Positions 5,679-27,535 of a stretch of 32,000 bases of DNA are shown here, in pieces. A program made the translations under genes and the position numbers. The DNA is taken from contig CANTGH010000005.1 of the NCBI GenBank assembly GCA_947653235.1, positions 72,491 through 104,490 of the forward strand. Reading direction: 5' to 3'. The notes beneath the pieces were generated by a model. That model saw only the letters and a list, made by a program, of their open reading frames with translations, had not been told where the DNA came from and searched no databases. Numbering within the stretch: the first letter of the stretch is position 1; each line of letters starts with the position of its first letter. This stretch comes from an uncultured Clostridium sp. Its GTDB lineage: Bacteria > Bacillota > Clostridia > TANB77 > CAG-508.

Positions 5679-7247
5679 TTATTCAATGATATTGATGTCA
5701 ATGCCCAAATCGTCAAATCCTGATGATGTTGTTTCTGCTGGTTTTTCTGTTTTGGTGTCTTTTAGTTTGATGTTGATTTCATGACCGACAGATAGTGCGA
5801 TGGTTTGGATTAAATCTTTTCGAGTTGTGACATCTTCTAAAATTTTTCTATTAAATTCTGTTAGTCCATTTGGAAATTCGATTTCCCACGTTTGGTCATT
5901 TAATTTGTTGACTGTCGTGTTGACAAGACAAGTATATAATCTGATTTTACCTGTTTTTTTCAAACTGTCTACAATCTGTTTCCAATCTTCGGTTTGTTTG
6001 GTGGCAGTTGGTCTTGCCGTTGTTGACGTTGATTGTGATCTTATTTGTGGCTGTCTTGTAGATTGCACCCCAGAAGCTCTTGGCACAGAAACAGTTCCAT
6101 TACTAATATTATTTAATTTTTGTTCTAATATTTCTACTTTCTTTTCTAAACTTGAAATGTCACCACTTGTTTGGTTCATGCAAATTTTTATGATACCAGA
6201 TTGAAATAAAATGTTTTTTTGCATTGAGTTTTTGAGATTACTTTCTAAATCTGATAATTGATAAATGACACTCAAAAGCCTTTGTTTTTCCGCTTTTTCA
6301 GACAATTCCTTGATTTGTTCTAATTCTTGCTGTGCATATAAATCCAAATTTTTTGTTGCTTGATAAACCAAGACATCTTTTACATATTTGATAACTTCCC
6401 ATAAAAAATTATATAAATCTTTTCCATCTTTTATGACATCATCAATTGCTTCTAAGGCAATCATTTCGTTATTTTCTAAAATCGCTTTTGCTAATTTGTG
6501 AATGTATTTTAAACTTGGCAAACCTACTAATTCTTTGACCAAATCAATTGTAATTTCTTCACTGTTTTCTTGACTACATCTTTCTAAAATGCTAATAGCA
6601 TCTCGCATGGCACCTTCAGATAATATAGCAATGGTTTTTAATGCCTCTTGTGTTGCCTTCAAGTTGGATTCTTGACAAATAATTTTTAGTCTTTTTATGA
6701 TATTTTCGTCACTTATTTTTTTATAGTCAAAACGCTGACAACGCGAAAGTATGGTTGCTGGCAATTTTTGTGGTTCAGTTGTTGCCAAAATAAATTTGAC
6801 ATGTTCTGGTGGCTCCTCTAGTGTTTTTAGCAAAGCATTAAAAGCACCTACGGAAAGCATGTGAACCTCATCGATAATATAAACTCTGTATTTGGCTTTG
6901 GTTGGTAGGAAATTGACTTCATCACGAATACTACGAATATCTTCTACACTGTTGTTTGAGGCAGCATCCATTTCTACCACATCGGTCAAAGAACCATCTA
7001 AGATTTCTTTACAAATTTCGCATTGATTGCATGGTTCGCCTTCTTCTGGATTTAGGCAATTTACTGCACGAGCTAAAATCTTGGCTGAGGTTGTTTTTCC
7101 TGTACCACGCCCTCCATTAAATAAATAGGCATGCCCTACTCTGCCTGCTATAATTTGATTTTTAAGTGTTTTTGTAATATGTTCTTGCCCTACCATATCT
7201 TCAAATTTTAATGGTCTAAATTTTCTGTATAATGCTGTATATGACAT
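5679..7247 (-). CDS. dnaX: DNA polymerase III subunit gamma/tau
   Basis: 522 aa with Walker A GGRGTGKTT, the zinc module CLNPEEGEPCNQCEIC, Walker B IIDEVHMLS and SRC. Confidence 0.95.
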   Translation of the reverse strand: MSYTALYRKFRPLKFEDMVGQEHITKTLKNQIIAGRVGHAYLFNGGRGTGKTTSAKILARAVNCLNPEEGEPCNQCEICKEILDGSLTDVVEMDAASNNSVEDIRSIRDEVNFLPTKAKYRVYIIDEVHMLSVGAFNALLKTLEEPPEHVKFILATTEPQKLPATILSRCQRFDYKKISDENIIKRLKIICQESNLKATQEALKTIAILSEGAMRDAISILERCSQENSEEITIDLVKELVGLPSLKYIHKLAKAILENNEMIALEAIDDVIKDGKDLYNFLWEVIKYVKDVLVYQATKNLDLYAQQELEQIKELSEKAEKQRLLSVIYQLSDLESNLKNSMQKNILFQSGIIKICMNQTSGDISSLEKKVEILEQKLNNISNGTVSVPRASGVQSTRQPQIRSQSTSTTARPTATKQTEDWKQIVDSLKKTGKIRLYTCLVNTTVNKLNDQTWEIEFPNGLTEFNRKILEDVTTRKDLIQTIALSVGHEINIKLKDTKTEKPAETTSSGFDDLGIDINIIE

Positions 7248-7277: not shown

Positions 7278-7403
7278 GACTTCCTTTAAGGAAGATATGA
7301 CTCACATAAATACACTACTTATCGCTGCTTTCTCTCGAACCTGACGAGATTCATAGCTTTTTATTGAAACATACCCTCCTTAAAAGAAGCCTCGTTCAAC
7401 GTA
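7278..7403 (-). ncRNA. ffs: signal recognition particle RNA, short (4.5S-like) form
   Basis: The minus strand contains CGTCAGGTTC-GAGA-GAAAGCAGCG, which is the conserved SRP domain IV with a GNRA tetraloop. It is enclosed by a 20-bp terminal helix (7389-7370 pairs with 7299-7280, including 3 G-U pairs). Canonical location upstream of dnaX. Confidence 0.85.
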
Positions 7404-12145: not shown

Positions 12146-12222
12146 TGGTGCACCCAACTGGAATCGAACCAGTGACCTTCCGCTTAGGAGGCGGACGCTC
12201 TATCCTACTGAGCTATGAATGC
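12146..12222 (-). tRNA. tRNA-Arg (anticodon CCU), CCA encoded
   Basis: Reverse complement is GCATTCATAGCTCAGTAGGATAGAGCGTCCGCCTCCTAAGCGGAAGGTCACTGGTTCGATTCCAGTTGGGTGCACCA. It folds by hand into a cloverleaf with D stem GCTC/GAGC, anticodon stem TCCGC/GCGGA with loop CTCCTAA, and T stem ACTGG/CCAGT. Confidence 0.95.
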
Positions 12223-24259: not shown

Positions 24260-24890
24260 AATTTTTTTAAACTTTTTGTATATTTTTTTTTTGTTTGACC
24301 ATAATAATATTATAAGGTTTATATTAACCTAACTTAGAGTGATATTAGGTCAATTTTTGGCTTTTTATTATTCGAGCTAAGATGTAATGTAGCTGAAGAA
24401 ATCCTTTGGTTATCTTATGTTGGACGCGACGAGTATATTATTTGTTTGTAAGCTATTAAATATTCATTTTTACCATGTCTAATTAATGGTTAAATAATAG
24501 GTAATATATTCAAAGTCATGATGATACTTGTATTTCGCCGTGGTTGTTATTAGTCTCATTTGGGAGATGAATATGGTTATGGCAAGTGCATTTATTATCT
24601 AGCAACGGATTGATATATGTGGTATATAGCTTATTCATATAGTGATATATGTTAGGTTAGACTATTATGTATATTGGTTTTAGCTGAAAGCTAATATAAG
24701 CTTTATCGATGAACCGGTATCAAGTGTATTCTTGATACCGGTTTCAAAATTGTTGTTTCCACTGATGGTGCTTGTTTGAAGAGAATTTAAATTTAACATT
24801 CTCCTTTATTATAGCTATTTAAAAAATAAGGTTTAATTTACTAAAATTTAATTACAAAACCAAAAAGAAAAGGAACTCTCCTCCTCTTTT
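24260..24890. other. ORF-free block with coding-like GC content: candidate structured RNA, DNA processing site (oriT-like) or deeply decayed gene
   Basis: No ORF of 60 codons or more in six frames. By hand count, 24421-24780 is about 31% GC (G 73, C 39 on the + strand), against about 17% for the flanking spacer 24241-24300. There are multiple local hairpins. A 14-bp perfect hairpin lies at 24711-24745. Confidence 0.35.
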
Positions 24891-24899
24891 CAGTTGTTT

Positions 24900-25250
24900 T
24901 TACAGTATAGAAGACCTTACATTTTTAGTCAATCCATCGTAAAATTCATTCACTGCATCCATACTTCCAAAGGCAAATCTGAATTTTACATAATTTTTAT
25001 CCTTTTGCTTGTATGGAAAAACTTTTTTAAGCGACGCTGAGCAACTTTTTGCCCATTTAATCGTGGCTCGGCAGCGATCATAGTCCCTTTGTTCAATCTC
25101 TGTCTTTGCCCATTTATCCCGCATTTTGATAAAATCTTCCTCACATCCATCGATGTTATTAGTCTGATTTAATTTGATGGGCATATGCATTGGTATACCT
25201 ACTGTTACTAAAAATTCTTCCACTTTTGGCTCGTAAATTGTAATACTCAT
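24900..25250 (-). CDS. hypothetical cytoplasmic protein (116 aa), no recognisable family
   Basis: Good RBS (GAAGGAGGG) with an ATG start. A weak hairpin plus T-run lies downstream, around 24850-24895. Confidence 0.7.
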   Translation of the reverse strand: MSITIYEPKVEEFLVTVGIPMHMPIKLNQTNNIDGCEEDFIKMRDKWAKTEIEQRDYDRCRATIKWAKSCSASLKKVFPYKQKDKNYVKFRFAFGSMDAVNEFYDGLTKNVRSSIL

Positions 25251-25599: not shown

Positions 25600-27270
25600 T
25601 TAATTAAGTGCCCCACTCATTATCCTAAACTTCAAATCTTTCTCCCAAATTTCCTGCAATCTTTCAAAATTTTTATTGGGGTTTTGCATAAGCTCTGCTA
25701 AATTATCTAATTCTTGATATTCCTCTTCTGATAACTCAAATTTCTTTTTTTGCACATAGCTTGGCATATGTAAAAATATGATTTCATCATTCATCAAACA
25801 ATGAAAATCGTAAAATAATCCTCGCATAGCTGCTTTTAAACCAGTTGTTACAGGATTGGAAGCATAGGCAATTTCTTTTTCTTGATAACGACTTTGTCGC
25901 ATTCCTAGCCAAGCATTTACACCAAACAAAAACTTTTCCCTTGGTAAAGCAAATGGATTAAAATTGATAGCATTGCAACAACAATCCGCATCGGCTAATA
26001 TCCATCTCTTTTCCTTTTCGTCAAAATATTCTGTAATCCAATGATCCCAATAAACTCCTTCATTCGATGTATATTCAGCAAATCCTGACCTTGCTCTTGC
26101 TGGAATTCCTTTAGCTTTTAAAATACTGGCTAGCAAAATTGCCTGTGCTCGACAAGTGACATGAATTTTGTTTTGAATGCTCCTTTTTATTTCATAATTT
26201 GGATTTTTTCTTAATAATTCTGCCAAAACACTTTGGGCTGTTGGGAAAATATCGTCTTCAAAAATCAGTCTCGTTTCTGGAATTTTGGTCATATCACCGT
26301 AAAAACTGTTAGGGTCTTTTCTGGTTTCATCAATAAATGAAATAATTGGTGCAATGGCTTCTTGATACGATTGATTTTTGAGTTCATTAAAATCGCTGAG
26401 GAAAAAGTCTACCGTACTTTCGGGCAATTTTTCTTCCAGCTCGCTAATAATTTCATTTCGATATTCTATTTCCAAAATTAATTTTCGCAAATTGGAAAAC
26501 GACATTTGTTTTTTCACCAGTAAGATGTGAATACTATGTCTTAAAACACGTTCTAGTTTTGAATTGTATAAATCAGCAATTAACGATTTGAACAAAGTCA
26601 ACATCAATTCTGTGGAAGTTACAATATCTTTTCCAGAATTTCTGAATAAATTGACACGATCTTCCATTTTTTTAAAATCAATTACTGCCGTCTTTTCTAA
26701 ACCGCCAATGTCGTTTTCCATAGCAGCATGTGGATCAATGACAACAATTTTGTAATCCATTTGATAATTGGCATTTTTTTGAATATTAGCAATCATAGAG
26801 CTCATAAATTTAGACTTGCCTGAACCACTACTTCCTACAACTAATGAATGTTTGGCAAAATCATAAGAATGTAAGGGAAGAAAACAATCGTCATTTAGGT
26901 AGGGAAATCCATTGATTTTTAAAATCGTATTTCTTTCCTCACTTTTTAGTAAATGCAAAGATTTTTGTATATCTAAAAATTTAATGGCATCTTTTTTGTA
27001 AAAAAATCGATTATAATTTGAAAAATCAATGCTTAAAAATTGATGTGGAATATTAAATAAAGCTATTTTTTGAATATTTTTATTACCTTTTTTGAAAAAT
27101 AATTTGGTAAAAAATAAAAAATTATTTTTGCAATATGGCCAAATGGTAATTTGTGAAATTTCCAAATTTCTTGCCTTTTTTACTTCATTTTTATCATACA
27201 CATCTAAGATATTGCGTTCTTGATTGGTAATAAAATAATTGAAATTTCGCATGGATTTTTTCTTTTTCAT
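25600..27270 (-). CDS. chimeric protein: HerA/FtsK/VirD4-superfamily P-loop NTPase N-terminal part fused to a transglutaminase-like cysteine protease domain
   Basis: Walker A VVGSSGSGKS and VVIDPHAA (DUF87/T4SS-ATPase-like), with a possible Walker B at IISFIDE. From about aa 340 it has a complete transglutaminase-core pattern: VTCRAQAILLASILKAKGIPAR, WDHWITEYF and WILADAD (Cys-His-Asp). Confidence 0.7.
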   Translation of the reverse strand: MKKKKSMRNFNYFITNQERNILDVYDKNEVKKARNLEISQITIWPYCKNNFLFFTKLFFKKGNKNIQKIALFNIPHQFLSIDFSNYNRFFYKKDAIKFLDIQKSLHLLKSEERNTILKINGFPYLNDDCFLPLHSYDFAKHSLVVGSSGSGKSKFMSSMIANIQKNANYQMDYKIVVIDPHAAMENDIGGLEKTAVIDFKKMEDRVNLFRNSGKDIVTSTELMLTLFKSLIADLYNSKLERVLRHSIHILLVKKQMSFSNLRKLILEIEYRNEIISELEEKLPESTVDFFLSDFNELKNQSYQEAIAPIISFIDETRKDPNSFYGDMTKIPETRLIFEDDIFPTAQSVLAELLRKNPNYEIKRSIQNKIHVTCRAQAILLASILKAKGIPARARSGFAEYTSNEGVYWDHWITEYFDEKEKRWILADADCCCNAINFNPFALPREKFLFGVNAWLGMRQSRYQEKEIAYASNPVTTGLKAAMRGLFYDFHCLMNDEIIFLHMPSYVQKKKFELSEEEYQELDNLAELMQNPNKNFERLQEIWEKDLKFRIMSGALN

Positions 27271-27493
27271 CTACTTTTTTTAATAAAAAATCACTTAAAT
27301 GACTGATTACTGATGGCAATTTGCGAGAAGTCCTGACAAAATAGCGCACGGTGTTTTGTTCTATTTTGATGAAAATATCCCATTTTCGAAATCGACCATT
27401 GAGTTTTGAAATTTCAAAAATTAAATTTAACCATGCCTCTTCTGTGACAAATTTTGAAGTTAAAAAGATTTCGGATACAATTTTTTTGCGCAT
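27194..27493 (-). pseudogene. N-terminal fragment belonging to the ATPase gene, separated by a +1 frame change
   Basis: Its last 77 nt overlap the start of the 556-aa ORF. Removing one A from the A6 tract (T6 on the + strand, 27256-27261) joins the two frames. Preferred start is the ATG at 27493, preceded by AAAGGAG. Confidence 0.5.
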
Positions 27494-27535
27494 ATTTTTC
27501 TCCTTTAGCATGATTTTATCACGTTAAACAGAAAA

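Follow-up and report, generated by a model that had tools for sequence, protein, structure and literature searches.

We describe here a gene for a large structured RNA on the plus strand of a 32,000-nt stretch of DNA from an uncultured Clostridium sp. of the order TANB77 (contig CANTGH010000005.1; the whole stretch is referred to below as the window). In our judgment it is very probable that positions 24276-24752 form an independent plus-strand gene for a large structured non-coding RNA, the core of which is proposed to act in trans and the position of which would reflect inherited synteny; of the narrower statement, that this is a structured RNA gene of a new family, we are close to certain. 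Its independence, strand specificity and structural constraint emerge directly from the computations laid out below, and since the block matches no known RNA family in Rfam, a comparison that the preliminary description of this DNA had called for, we regard it as representing a hitherto undescribed class of large structured RNAs in bacteria.

The gene occupies most of an intergenic block (24202-24899) between two minus-strand open reading frames (ORFs) of 185 aa (p185, 23644-24201) and 116 aa (p116, 24900-25250). The preliminary description, made from the letters of the sequence, had noted the absence of ORFs of 60 codons or more, dense stop codons and an unusual base composition, and its counts proved accurate. 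The longest ORF in the block measures 40 aa and stops occur throughout all six frames; the segment 24421-24780 contains 31.1% GC (about 31% had been estimated) with exactly 73 G and 39 C on the plus strand; and the adjacent true spacer, put at about 17% GC, contains 17.3% (24202-24311). Over the RNA core (24312-24706) the GC content is 28.9%, as against 17.3% in that spacer, and positive GC skew is limited to approximately 24300-24800, the surrounding minus-strand genes being negative. The plus strand of the core folds with a minimum free energy (MFE) of -117.8 kcal/mol (z = -7.47), which none of 100 shuffled sequences equals, and its minus strand with -52.3 kcal/mol (z = -1.75). The observation is genuine and well beyond chance, and the block is not spacer.

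To collect homologues, 78 loci from different GTDB species were fetched by using the neighboring 593-aa VirB4-type protein as a handle. With the block as a single-sequence query, nhmmer produced matches in 63 of them (E down to 3e-108), which delimit a conserved core of approximately 24272-24713 and extend to loci where VirB4 identity is only 61-65%. A 28-nt motif (TTATTNNTATAGNNATATATNTTAGNTT) taken from P6, the best-conserved hairpin (described below), was used to search metagenomes and recovered at least 120 further stretches, mostly from the human gut; the same DNA motif had no match among 2.9 million viral contigs. A profile hidden Markov model (HMM) detects the RNA in 184 of the 198 loci, among them every one of the 120 motif-found metagenome loci, always as one copy per locus, and its single match in the window spans 24310-24744 (E = 1.3e-95). 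The homologues stem from gut metagenomes and from GTDB metagenome-assembled genomes (MAGs) assigned to the TANB77/CAG-508 lineage. One homologous locus belongs to Clostridium sp. CAG:273, and CAG-273 is placed by GTDB in Clostridia; TANB77; CAG-508 (PMC13508870). Across 111 distinct sequences, 72 of the 368 core positions are conserved at 97% or more; the core measures 350-449 nt in the homologues (median 382) and approximately 395 nt here.

A consensus fold was obtained with RNAalifold from a MAFFT alignment of 64 sequences of the GTDB set (hereafter A1), and profile HMM alignments, in place of a full-length covariance model, were used for the homologues. The fold contains 124 base pairs, 99 of them with compensatory double changes. 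Standard pairs fill 97.0% of the paired cells, compared with 82.9% after shuffling of the 3' partners, a procedure that did not reach the observed value in any of 500 trials, and cells with double changes number 926 as against 254 in the shuffles. When the partners are slid by 1-3 columns, pairing falls to 35-45% and the covariation score from 0.434 to 0.07-0.09. For 53 distinct metagenome sequences outside the set from which it was derived, the fold gives 96.9% pairing, as against 33-44% for slid partners. The preliminary suggestion of a large, G-U-rich structured RNA on the plus strand is thus strongly supported by conservation and covariation, and the conservation and covariation that it proposed to look for are decisively present in the homologue searches and in the pairing statistics of the consensus fold.

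The architecture, which is recovered when the window's core sequence is folded alone by MFE, is a six-helix wheel made up of a closing helix, P1, and five arms, P2 to P6. The core itself (24312-24706, plus strand) is delimited by the nhmmer profile and the consensus fold, together with the MFE z-score given above. P1 joins the 5' and 3' ends by pairing 24313-24326 with 24692-24705; 7 of its 13 pairs show double compensatory changes and 98.8% of its cells are paired. P2 (24337-24373; strands 24337-24352 and 24358-24373) is a hairpin arm of 15 pairs, 12 of them with double changes, with a loop of variable length that accommodates insertions of approximately 45 nt in three loci of A1 (L010, L013 and L048), and P3 (24381-24421; strands 24381-24396 and 24406-24421) is a hairpin arm of 16 pairs, of which 15 have double changes and 97.3% of the cells are paired. 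P4 (24431-24511; strands 24431-24457 and 24485-24511) consists of a two-part base and a distal helix (helices 4 and 5 of the fold; 22 pairs, 16 with double changes), the distal part being highly variable in length (A1 columns 270-370). P5 (24520-24599; strands 24520-24556 and 24565-24599; helices 6-9) has 26 pairs, 20 with double changes, and carries a conserved internal loop (UA ... GAA) beside a GUCC/GGAU helix, with U222, A223, A240 and A241 invariant and unpaired. P6 (24602-24684; strands 24602-24641 and 24646-24684; helices 10-12) is the arm with the highest sequence conservation; 29 of its 32 pairs show double changes, and it is capped by a GNRA tetraloop, GUGA at 24642-24645 here and GCAA or GUAA elsewhere. 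Species-specific expansion hairpins of 40-80 nt occur in A1 at the tips of P2 (L010:3517-4076, L013:713-1261 and L048:3737-4240) and P4 (L058, L007, L011, L021, L025 and L070) and leave the core unaffected; in this they closely recall the expansion segments known from other large RNAs.

The individual pairings singled out in the preliminary description are, for the most part, not those of the conserved fold. Its small local helices (AGCTA/TAGCT, CCTAA/TTAGG and TTAGCT-GAA-AGCTAA) are there in the sequence, but they represent clade-specific chance complementarity and lie outside the conserved fold. The long-range pair that it drew between 24326-24333 and 24651-24658 is not conserved, because GTTAGGTT pairs locally with AGCTTAT inside P6, with covariation, and because its proposed partner becomes GUUGAGCAA in other clades without compensation. 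The 10-nt direct repeat (24611-24620 and 24643-24652) does exist; its interpretation as iteron-like does not stand, since both copies are strands of the P6 helices.

The junctions between the arms appear to be constrained beyond the helices that they connect. They comprise the strands J1/2 (ACCUAACUUA, 24327-24336), J2/3 (GAGCUAA, 24374-24380), J3/4 (24422-24430), J4/5 (AAAGUCAU, 24512-24519; GAGCUAA in most clades) and J6/1 (24685-24691), all on the plus strand, J3/4 being taken from the consensus fold and J6/1 from its mapping onto the window. The pair with the highest mutual information in the whole alignment of the 111 distinct full-length homologues is non-nested and connects HMM positions 24 (J1/2) and 187 (J4/5); its types are GC in 48 sequences, AU in 41, UA in 19 and GU in 3, i.e. 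100% canonical, and its equivalent in the window is A24332-U24516. Here, ACUU at 24332-24335 and AAGU at 24513-24516 can be aligned as a possible four-pair tertiary or pseudoknot contact. Other junction covariations include the non-Watson-Crick combinations 26:67 and 190:270, position 26 lying in J1/2 and 67 in J2/3. A junction motif, UUC-GAGCNAA-GAU, recurs three to four times (24374-24380, 24512-24519, 24600-24609 and 24327-24336, and in the homologous columns of A1), and the GC of its J1/2 copy pairs with the GC of its J4/5 copy; the repetition could stem from a duplicated hairpin-junction module or mark a repeated site of protein binding or tertiary contact. In one clade, to which the window belongs, several junction strands are remodeled together.

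The pairing statistics also reveal which strand is functional. G-U pairs account for 25.8% of the paired cells and A-C combinations for 0.3%, such that pairing would drop from 97% to 71.5% if the other strand were folded; the functional molecule is therefore the plus strand, antisense to both flanking genes. On this strand the RNA has a conserved predicted promoter of its own. The preliminary description had seen no strong promoter and had proposed read-through from the 116-aa gene, which is untenable given that this gene is encoded on the opposite strand. When 110 homologues are aligned on the invariant UAAGG at the 5' end of P1, a predicted -35-like box emerges at -37 to -32 (T79 T74 G78 a/t A81 T81 %; family consensus TTGaAT; TTGTAT at 24276-24281 in the window), the columns of which are conserved in A1, followed after an 18-nt spacer by a -10 box, consensus nATAAT at -13 to -8 (A82 T80 A95 A74 T82 % at -12 to -8), which reads CATAAT at 24300-24305 and in which A24301 and T24305 are invariant in A1. 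The likely 5' end of the RNA is the purine at 24312 (-1), just before UAAGG.

At the other end, a terminator-like hairpin with a T-rich tail occupies 24708-24752. The perfect hairpin noticed earlier at approximately 24711-24745 corresponds to its stem, the 13-nt arms of which (24712-24724 and 24731-24743) are 100% complementary. In A1 the sequence of this hairpin is unrelated between species and yet always pairs, and a hairpin of -8 kcal/mol or better with at least four T in the next 8 nt follows the core in 88 of 111 homologues (median dG -21). The RNA is thus predicted to consist of a core of approximately 395 nt and a terminator of approximately 45 nt. The spacer beyond it (24753-24899) lies outside the RNA and is not conserved, the A1 alignment being lost past the terminator; it includes, on the minus strand, a terminator-like hairpin of the 116-aa gene at 24858-24895, as called by a terminator scan. 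On the 5' side, a consensus scan places a promoter-like site of the divergent 185-aa/VirB4 operon at 24230-24258 of the minus strand (TTGACA-17-TATGAT, 11/12 matches), back to back with the RNA promoter, the two -35 boxes being separated by approximately 17 bp.

Riboswitches classically consist of a structured domain with an intrinsic terminator directly behind it, and the RNA might conceivably be a cis-acting sensor that either governs its own terminator, and with it antisense read-through into gyrB, or modulates the divergent promoter. The downstream neighbor is indeed convergent, namely gyrB in 163 of 184 loci, where it ends a median of 33 nt past the terminator, and the 116-aa gene in the window. 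Riboswitch-controlled antisense RNAs are known from Listeria and Clostridium. However, inspection of A1 uncovered no conserved antiterminator pairing, and terminators that are unrelated between species are hard to reconcile with such a switch. Moreover, the RNA is kept where gyrB does not lie downstream (in the window's clade and in loci L117 and L191), no same-strand gene follows it, and with 395 nt and six helices it is far above the size of known aptamers. We therefore consider a cis-acting sensor very improbable.

Could the block instead encode a protein, or be the relic of a gene that once did? In the homologues the longest stop-free stretch in any frame has a median of 51 aa, and stops interrupt all frames in all of them. 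The column entropy of the RNA shows no lag-3 peak, whereas the VirB4 coding control peaks at lags 3 and 6, and the lengths of inserts are mostly not multiples of three (79, 405 and 159 with remainders of 0, 1 and 2, respectively). Stops, missing codon periodicity and insert lengths together led us to reject a coding gene or its relic. An alternative genetic code was likewise rejected, since reading TGA as sense opens no frame in the block and rescues no genes. As to codon usage in the window at large, TGA ends 1 of the 19 stop-free stretches of 600 nt or more (TAA 11, TAG 7), and there is no sign of TGA recoding; reading TGA as sense only extends non-coding or off-frame stretches. A 39-aa minus-strand ORF (24680-24799) with a strong AAAGGAG Shine-Dalgarno-like sequence runs antisense to the terminator and the 3' strand of P1; it probably arose by chance, because the region past the terminator is unconserved even in the closest relatives.

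The block might also act as DNA. The preliminary description had raised an origin of transfer (oriT) as an alternative to a structured RNA, and a DNA-level conjugative element with oriT or iterons, or else a decayed protein gene, would account for a VirB4-type gene close by, for inverted and direct repeats and for a lack of ORFs despite a coding-like GC content. Its conservation, though, is strand-asymmetric in the manner of RNA pairing (the G-U and A-C frequencies given above), each copy of the direct repeat serves as a strand in covarying helices, and the features just described (stops everywhere in the homologues, no codon periodicity, inserts that are not multiples of three) argue against a relic. 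The locus is chromosomal, situated between gyrB and gyrA near recF; no relaxase was found among the ORFs scanned with Pfam, and a blastn search of the block in distant mode against 72,556 plasmid and 50,697 phage records returned no match. We regard this alternative as refuted as far as sequence analysis allows, its remaining probability being practically negligible. The resemblance to the oriT of Gram-positive conjugative elements is confined to non-coding, repeat-containing DNA near genes of a type IV secretion system (T4SS); the window RNA differs in its RNA-type conservation (G-U wobble, promoter, terminator), its chromosomal position and the lack of a relaxase among those ORFs. For annotation this means that what looks "intergenic" upstream of virB4 should be entered as a gene and not be taken for an oriT.

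The genomic neighborhood raises a different question, i.e. whether the RNA works with the ATPase encoded next to it. The 593-aa neighbor is a VirB4-type ATPase with many orthologues, at 60-87% aa identity, in uncultured Clostridia. The gene is split here: p185 corresponds to the N-terminal portion of conjugation ATPases of VirB4 type (CD1110 and TrsD families), and the remainder is covered by the 593-aa protein (PDB 4ag5). In most species, recF and gyrB are followed by the RNA, convergent with gyrB; beyond it, and all pointing away from it, come p185, VirB4, a ParA/MinD-like ATPase and gyrA. The split VirB4 (185 + 593 aa) and the ParA/MinD-like ATPase (20788-24201 of the minus strand in the window) lie between gyrB and gyrA lineage-wide (L001-L078). 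No other T4SS components occur in the flanks of the split virB4, and PADLOC defense models applied to the flanking proteins yielded only generic ASCE ATPase similarities; the split VirB4 looks like an orphan that has apparently been domesticated.

A dedicated partnership, in which the RNA would serve this ATPase as cofactor, scaffold or regulator in the manner of a pRNA and be co-regulated with it from back-to-back promoters, has several points to commend it. The divergent layout is found in approximately 65 of the 71 GTDB loci with enough upstream sequence and recurs in 81 of the 93 loci that were found by the RNA motif alone and offer enough room (p185 starting a median of 191 nt from the RNA 5' end), the -35 boxes are close together as described, and the orphan VirB4 is unusually conserved. 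Yet each partner occurs without the other. Six species (L024, L028, L051, L072, L073 and L074) keep gyrB, p185 and virB4 and have no RNA at the site, where the gyrB-p185 spacer measures 130-580 nt; the four of them placed in the VirB4 tree (L024, L028, L051 and L072) are scattered, L024 being sister to the RNA-bearing L020, which implies repeated recent losses or relocations. Conversely, the RNA resides in at least three other contexts with no virB4 near. In L191 its neighbors are lspA-rluD-aspS, in L117 radical-SAM and ABC-transporter genes, and in L081 gyrB alone of the usual pair. Linkage to gyrB is about as tight (163 of 184 loci), suggesting plain synteny, and no similarity to pRNA in sequence or structure is seen. 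A dedicated VirB4 partner is thus improbable, and the earlier placement of the block upstream of the VirB4 operon is right as geography, the two being divergent neighbors, whereas a functional link is doubtful. The phi29-family pRNA provides a functional analogy only, in that it scaffolds a packaging ATPase of the ASCE (FtsK/HerA) superfamily as the window RNA adjoins an ATPase of VirB4 type; it is phage-encoded and 120-174 nt long, bears no resemblance to the window RNA, and the linkage in our case is breakable and known from sequence alone.

In the window's own clade gyrB no longer adjoins the RNA. Homologues of a 556-aa HerA/FtsK/TrwB-like ATPase ORF, in some loci with those of a 105-aa ORF, were detected in the nearest relatives only, a distribution that points to an insertion by which gyrB was displaced in the window's clade. 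The two ORFs (25600-27511, minus strand) overlap by 77 nt in different frames and could represent a frameshifted single gene or overlapping genes. The 116-aa gene had no tblastn match in any of the loci.

How might an RNA of this kind work? The computations place a conserved sigma-70-type promoter such that transcription should begin at approximately 24312, and the first 14 nt pair with 24692-24705 to form P1, closing the wheel of P2 to P6. The junction strands with their recurring GAGCNAA are held by at least one covarying tertiary pair, that between J1/2 and J4/5, and the sequence-variable, structure-conserved hairpin ends the unit. We propose that the RNA acts in trans via the three-dimensional fold of its core, in all likelihood within a ribonucleoprotein (RNP) of which it would be the RNA subunit, as a scaffold or possibly a catalyst, and its position, convergent with gyrB and divergent from the split virB4, would represent inherited synteny and not obligatory coupling. 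We favor trans action via the folded core because of the tertiary-constrained junction, the GNRA loop, the freedom of arm-tip lengths and the conservation of P6 beyond the needs of pairing; such features typify RNP cores and ribozymes, and not base-pairing small RNAs or riboswitches. By this analogy, we put the chances that it is an RNP or ribozyme core acting in trans, independently of VirB4, at about even, and we consider it unlikely that it works by base-pairing with mRNAs, regulates in cis or serves as a DNA site. A sizeable share of the remaining probability falls to functions other than those considered here.

Several points weigh against this interpretation. The promoter, the start site and the 3' end are predictions, and the T tract of the window's terminator is weak and interrupted (UUUCAAAAUUGUUGUUU), for which reason a simple terminator scan made no call there. 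Absence from the syntenic site in 6 of approximately 71 species argues against essentiality, unless the RNA has moved elsewhere in those genomes, as it may have. The very frequent adjacency to p185 and virB4 (the 81 of 93 motif-found loci) may reflect a functional link after all, and the suggestion of an RNP scaffold or ribozyme draws on likeness to other large ornate RNAs. Finally, a single lineage, sampled through MAGs and metagenomes, supplied every homologue, and relatedness inflates some of the covariation counts; the slid controls and the independent pair types nevertheless argue against relatedness as the explanation of the covariation.

Two further RNA genes, both outside the block, were found in the window. 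A small-type bacterial signal recognition particle (SRP) RNA (7286-7380, minus strand, 52.9 bits) is encoded directly upstream of a 522-aa ORF (5679-7247), which is followed by ORFs of 114 and 199 aa; going by layout alone, we take this to resemble the scr-dnaX-ebfC-recR arrangement of Firmicutes. Many Firmicutes carry a long, Alu-containing SRP RNA instead. The other is a single gene for tRNA-Arg(CCU) (12146-12222, minus strand).

Bacterial RNAs of more than approximately 300 nt with complex conserved folds are, to our knowledge, few, namely the rRNAs, RNase P RNA, tmRNA, group I and II introns, OLE, GOLLD, ROOL, HEARO and raiA, and every one of them that we know of either proved to be a machine or stays a prominent open problem. 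Approximately 100 covarying pairs, 72 near-invariant positions out of 368 and a tertiary contact amount to a degree of constraint that is normally that of ribozymes and RNP cores, and the fact that TANB77, an abundant gut order already equipped with a trimmed OLE, keeps the RNA in its reduced genomes implies a function worth its cost. It is a tentative thought, more doubtful than probable, that this unrecognized large-RNA class with its compact six-helix core ranks with OLE, ROOL, GOLLD and RNase P RNA as the catalytic or organizing subunit of a cellular machine of TANB77 or, in the boldest form, as a ring-forming or scaffolding RNA for the orphan, chromosomally fixed VirB4-type ATPase, a cellular analogue of pRNA. 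At its length the RNA is amenable to in vitro transcription, chemical probing and cryo-EM, and a covariance model would permit phylogenetic profiling for protein partners.

It is conceivable that the RNA is not new at all but a highly diverged form of a known large RNA, such as RNase P RNA, a TANB77 variant of OLE, tmRNA, 6S, ROOL or GOLLD. Rfam 15 at gathering thresholds recognized only the tRNA and the small SRP RNA in the whole window; when the threshold was relaxed to E <= 10 for the block (24000-25100) and to E <= 5 for six diverse homologue loci, only chance hairpin matches appeared. ARAGORN called no tmRNA or tRNA in the block, tRNA-Arg being its sole call in the window; tmRNA was rejected as it would require a tRNA-like domain and a tag frame, neither of which was detected by ARAGORN, and no Rfam tmRNA match was obtained. 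In the literature we found no prior description of the window RNA. The catalogue of structured-RNA candidates from the human microbiome by Fremin and Bhatt lists two that are flanked by gyrB, HMP2_2587 and HMP2_5062 (PMC8040213), which may or may not overlap with it; the RNA may thus have been listed anonymously before. Taken together with the specific comparisons that follow, a diverged member of a known family has only a very slim chance of being the correct reading, and we retain that of a new family.

Among known RNAs, the type B RNase P RNA (RF00011) invites comparison because it is likewise approximately 400 nt long, pairs its ends in P1, has its own promoter and combines conserved junction nucleotides with a long-range, pseudoknot-like core contact; in addition, we read the motif GAGCAAAGAU as loosely like its CR-I (GAGGAAAGUC). 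The window RNA differs in that it matches no RNase P covariance model and forms a simple wheel of five radial arms. By inspection it shows neither the CR-I to CR-V signatures nor the P4 pseudoknot, and its consensus is devoid of GAGGAAAGUCC and ACAGAA...GGCUUA of RNase P. In several species, moreover, the syntenic site is without it, which one would not expect if the RNA were essential. ROOL and GOLLD are, like the window RNA, large structured RNAs of Firmicutes type that were defined purely by covariation and the function of which is open. They typically occur on prophages or beside tRNAs and form multimeric cages via conserved loops (bioRxiv 10.1101/2024.12.08.627333), whereas the window RNA is found in a core chromosomal region, has no matches in the 2.9 million viral contigs and has terminal loops that are variable save for the one GNRA loop. 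The chromosomal context and the lack of viral-contig and Rfam matches led us to reject both.

Another parallel is OLE (RF01071). The gene oapA, which encodes a CNNM-like membrane protein, has no counterpart downstream of the window RNA, the neighbor there being convergent gyrB or p116. TANB77, an uncultured gut order of reduced genomes, was reported to carry shortened OLE "variant 1" RNAs together with oapA, and these score 310-390 bits against the OLE model (Fernando and Breaker, PMC11332333). No OLE match at all was obtained for the block or the six homologues at the relaxed thresholds given above, and no same-strand gene lies directly downstream, which excludes variant 1 and therefore makes the window RNA a second, different large RNA in TANB77. 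The two have much in common, both being large, ornate RNAs from stand-alone ncRNA genes of Bacillota, with many invariant nucleotides, covarying helices and a function that is open in either case, and both being present in the same TANB77 order. Besides the missing covariance-model match and oapA, they are set apart by size, approximately 400 nt for the window RNA as against approximately 600 nt for OLE, and by design, the P1-P16 layout of OLE contrasting with a six-helix wheel closed by P1.

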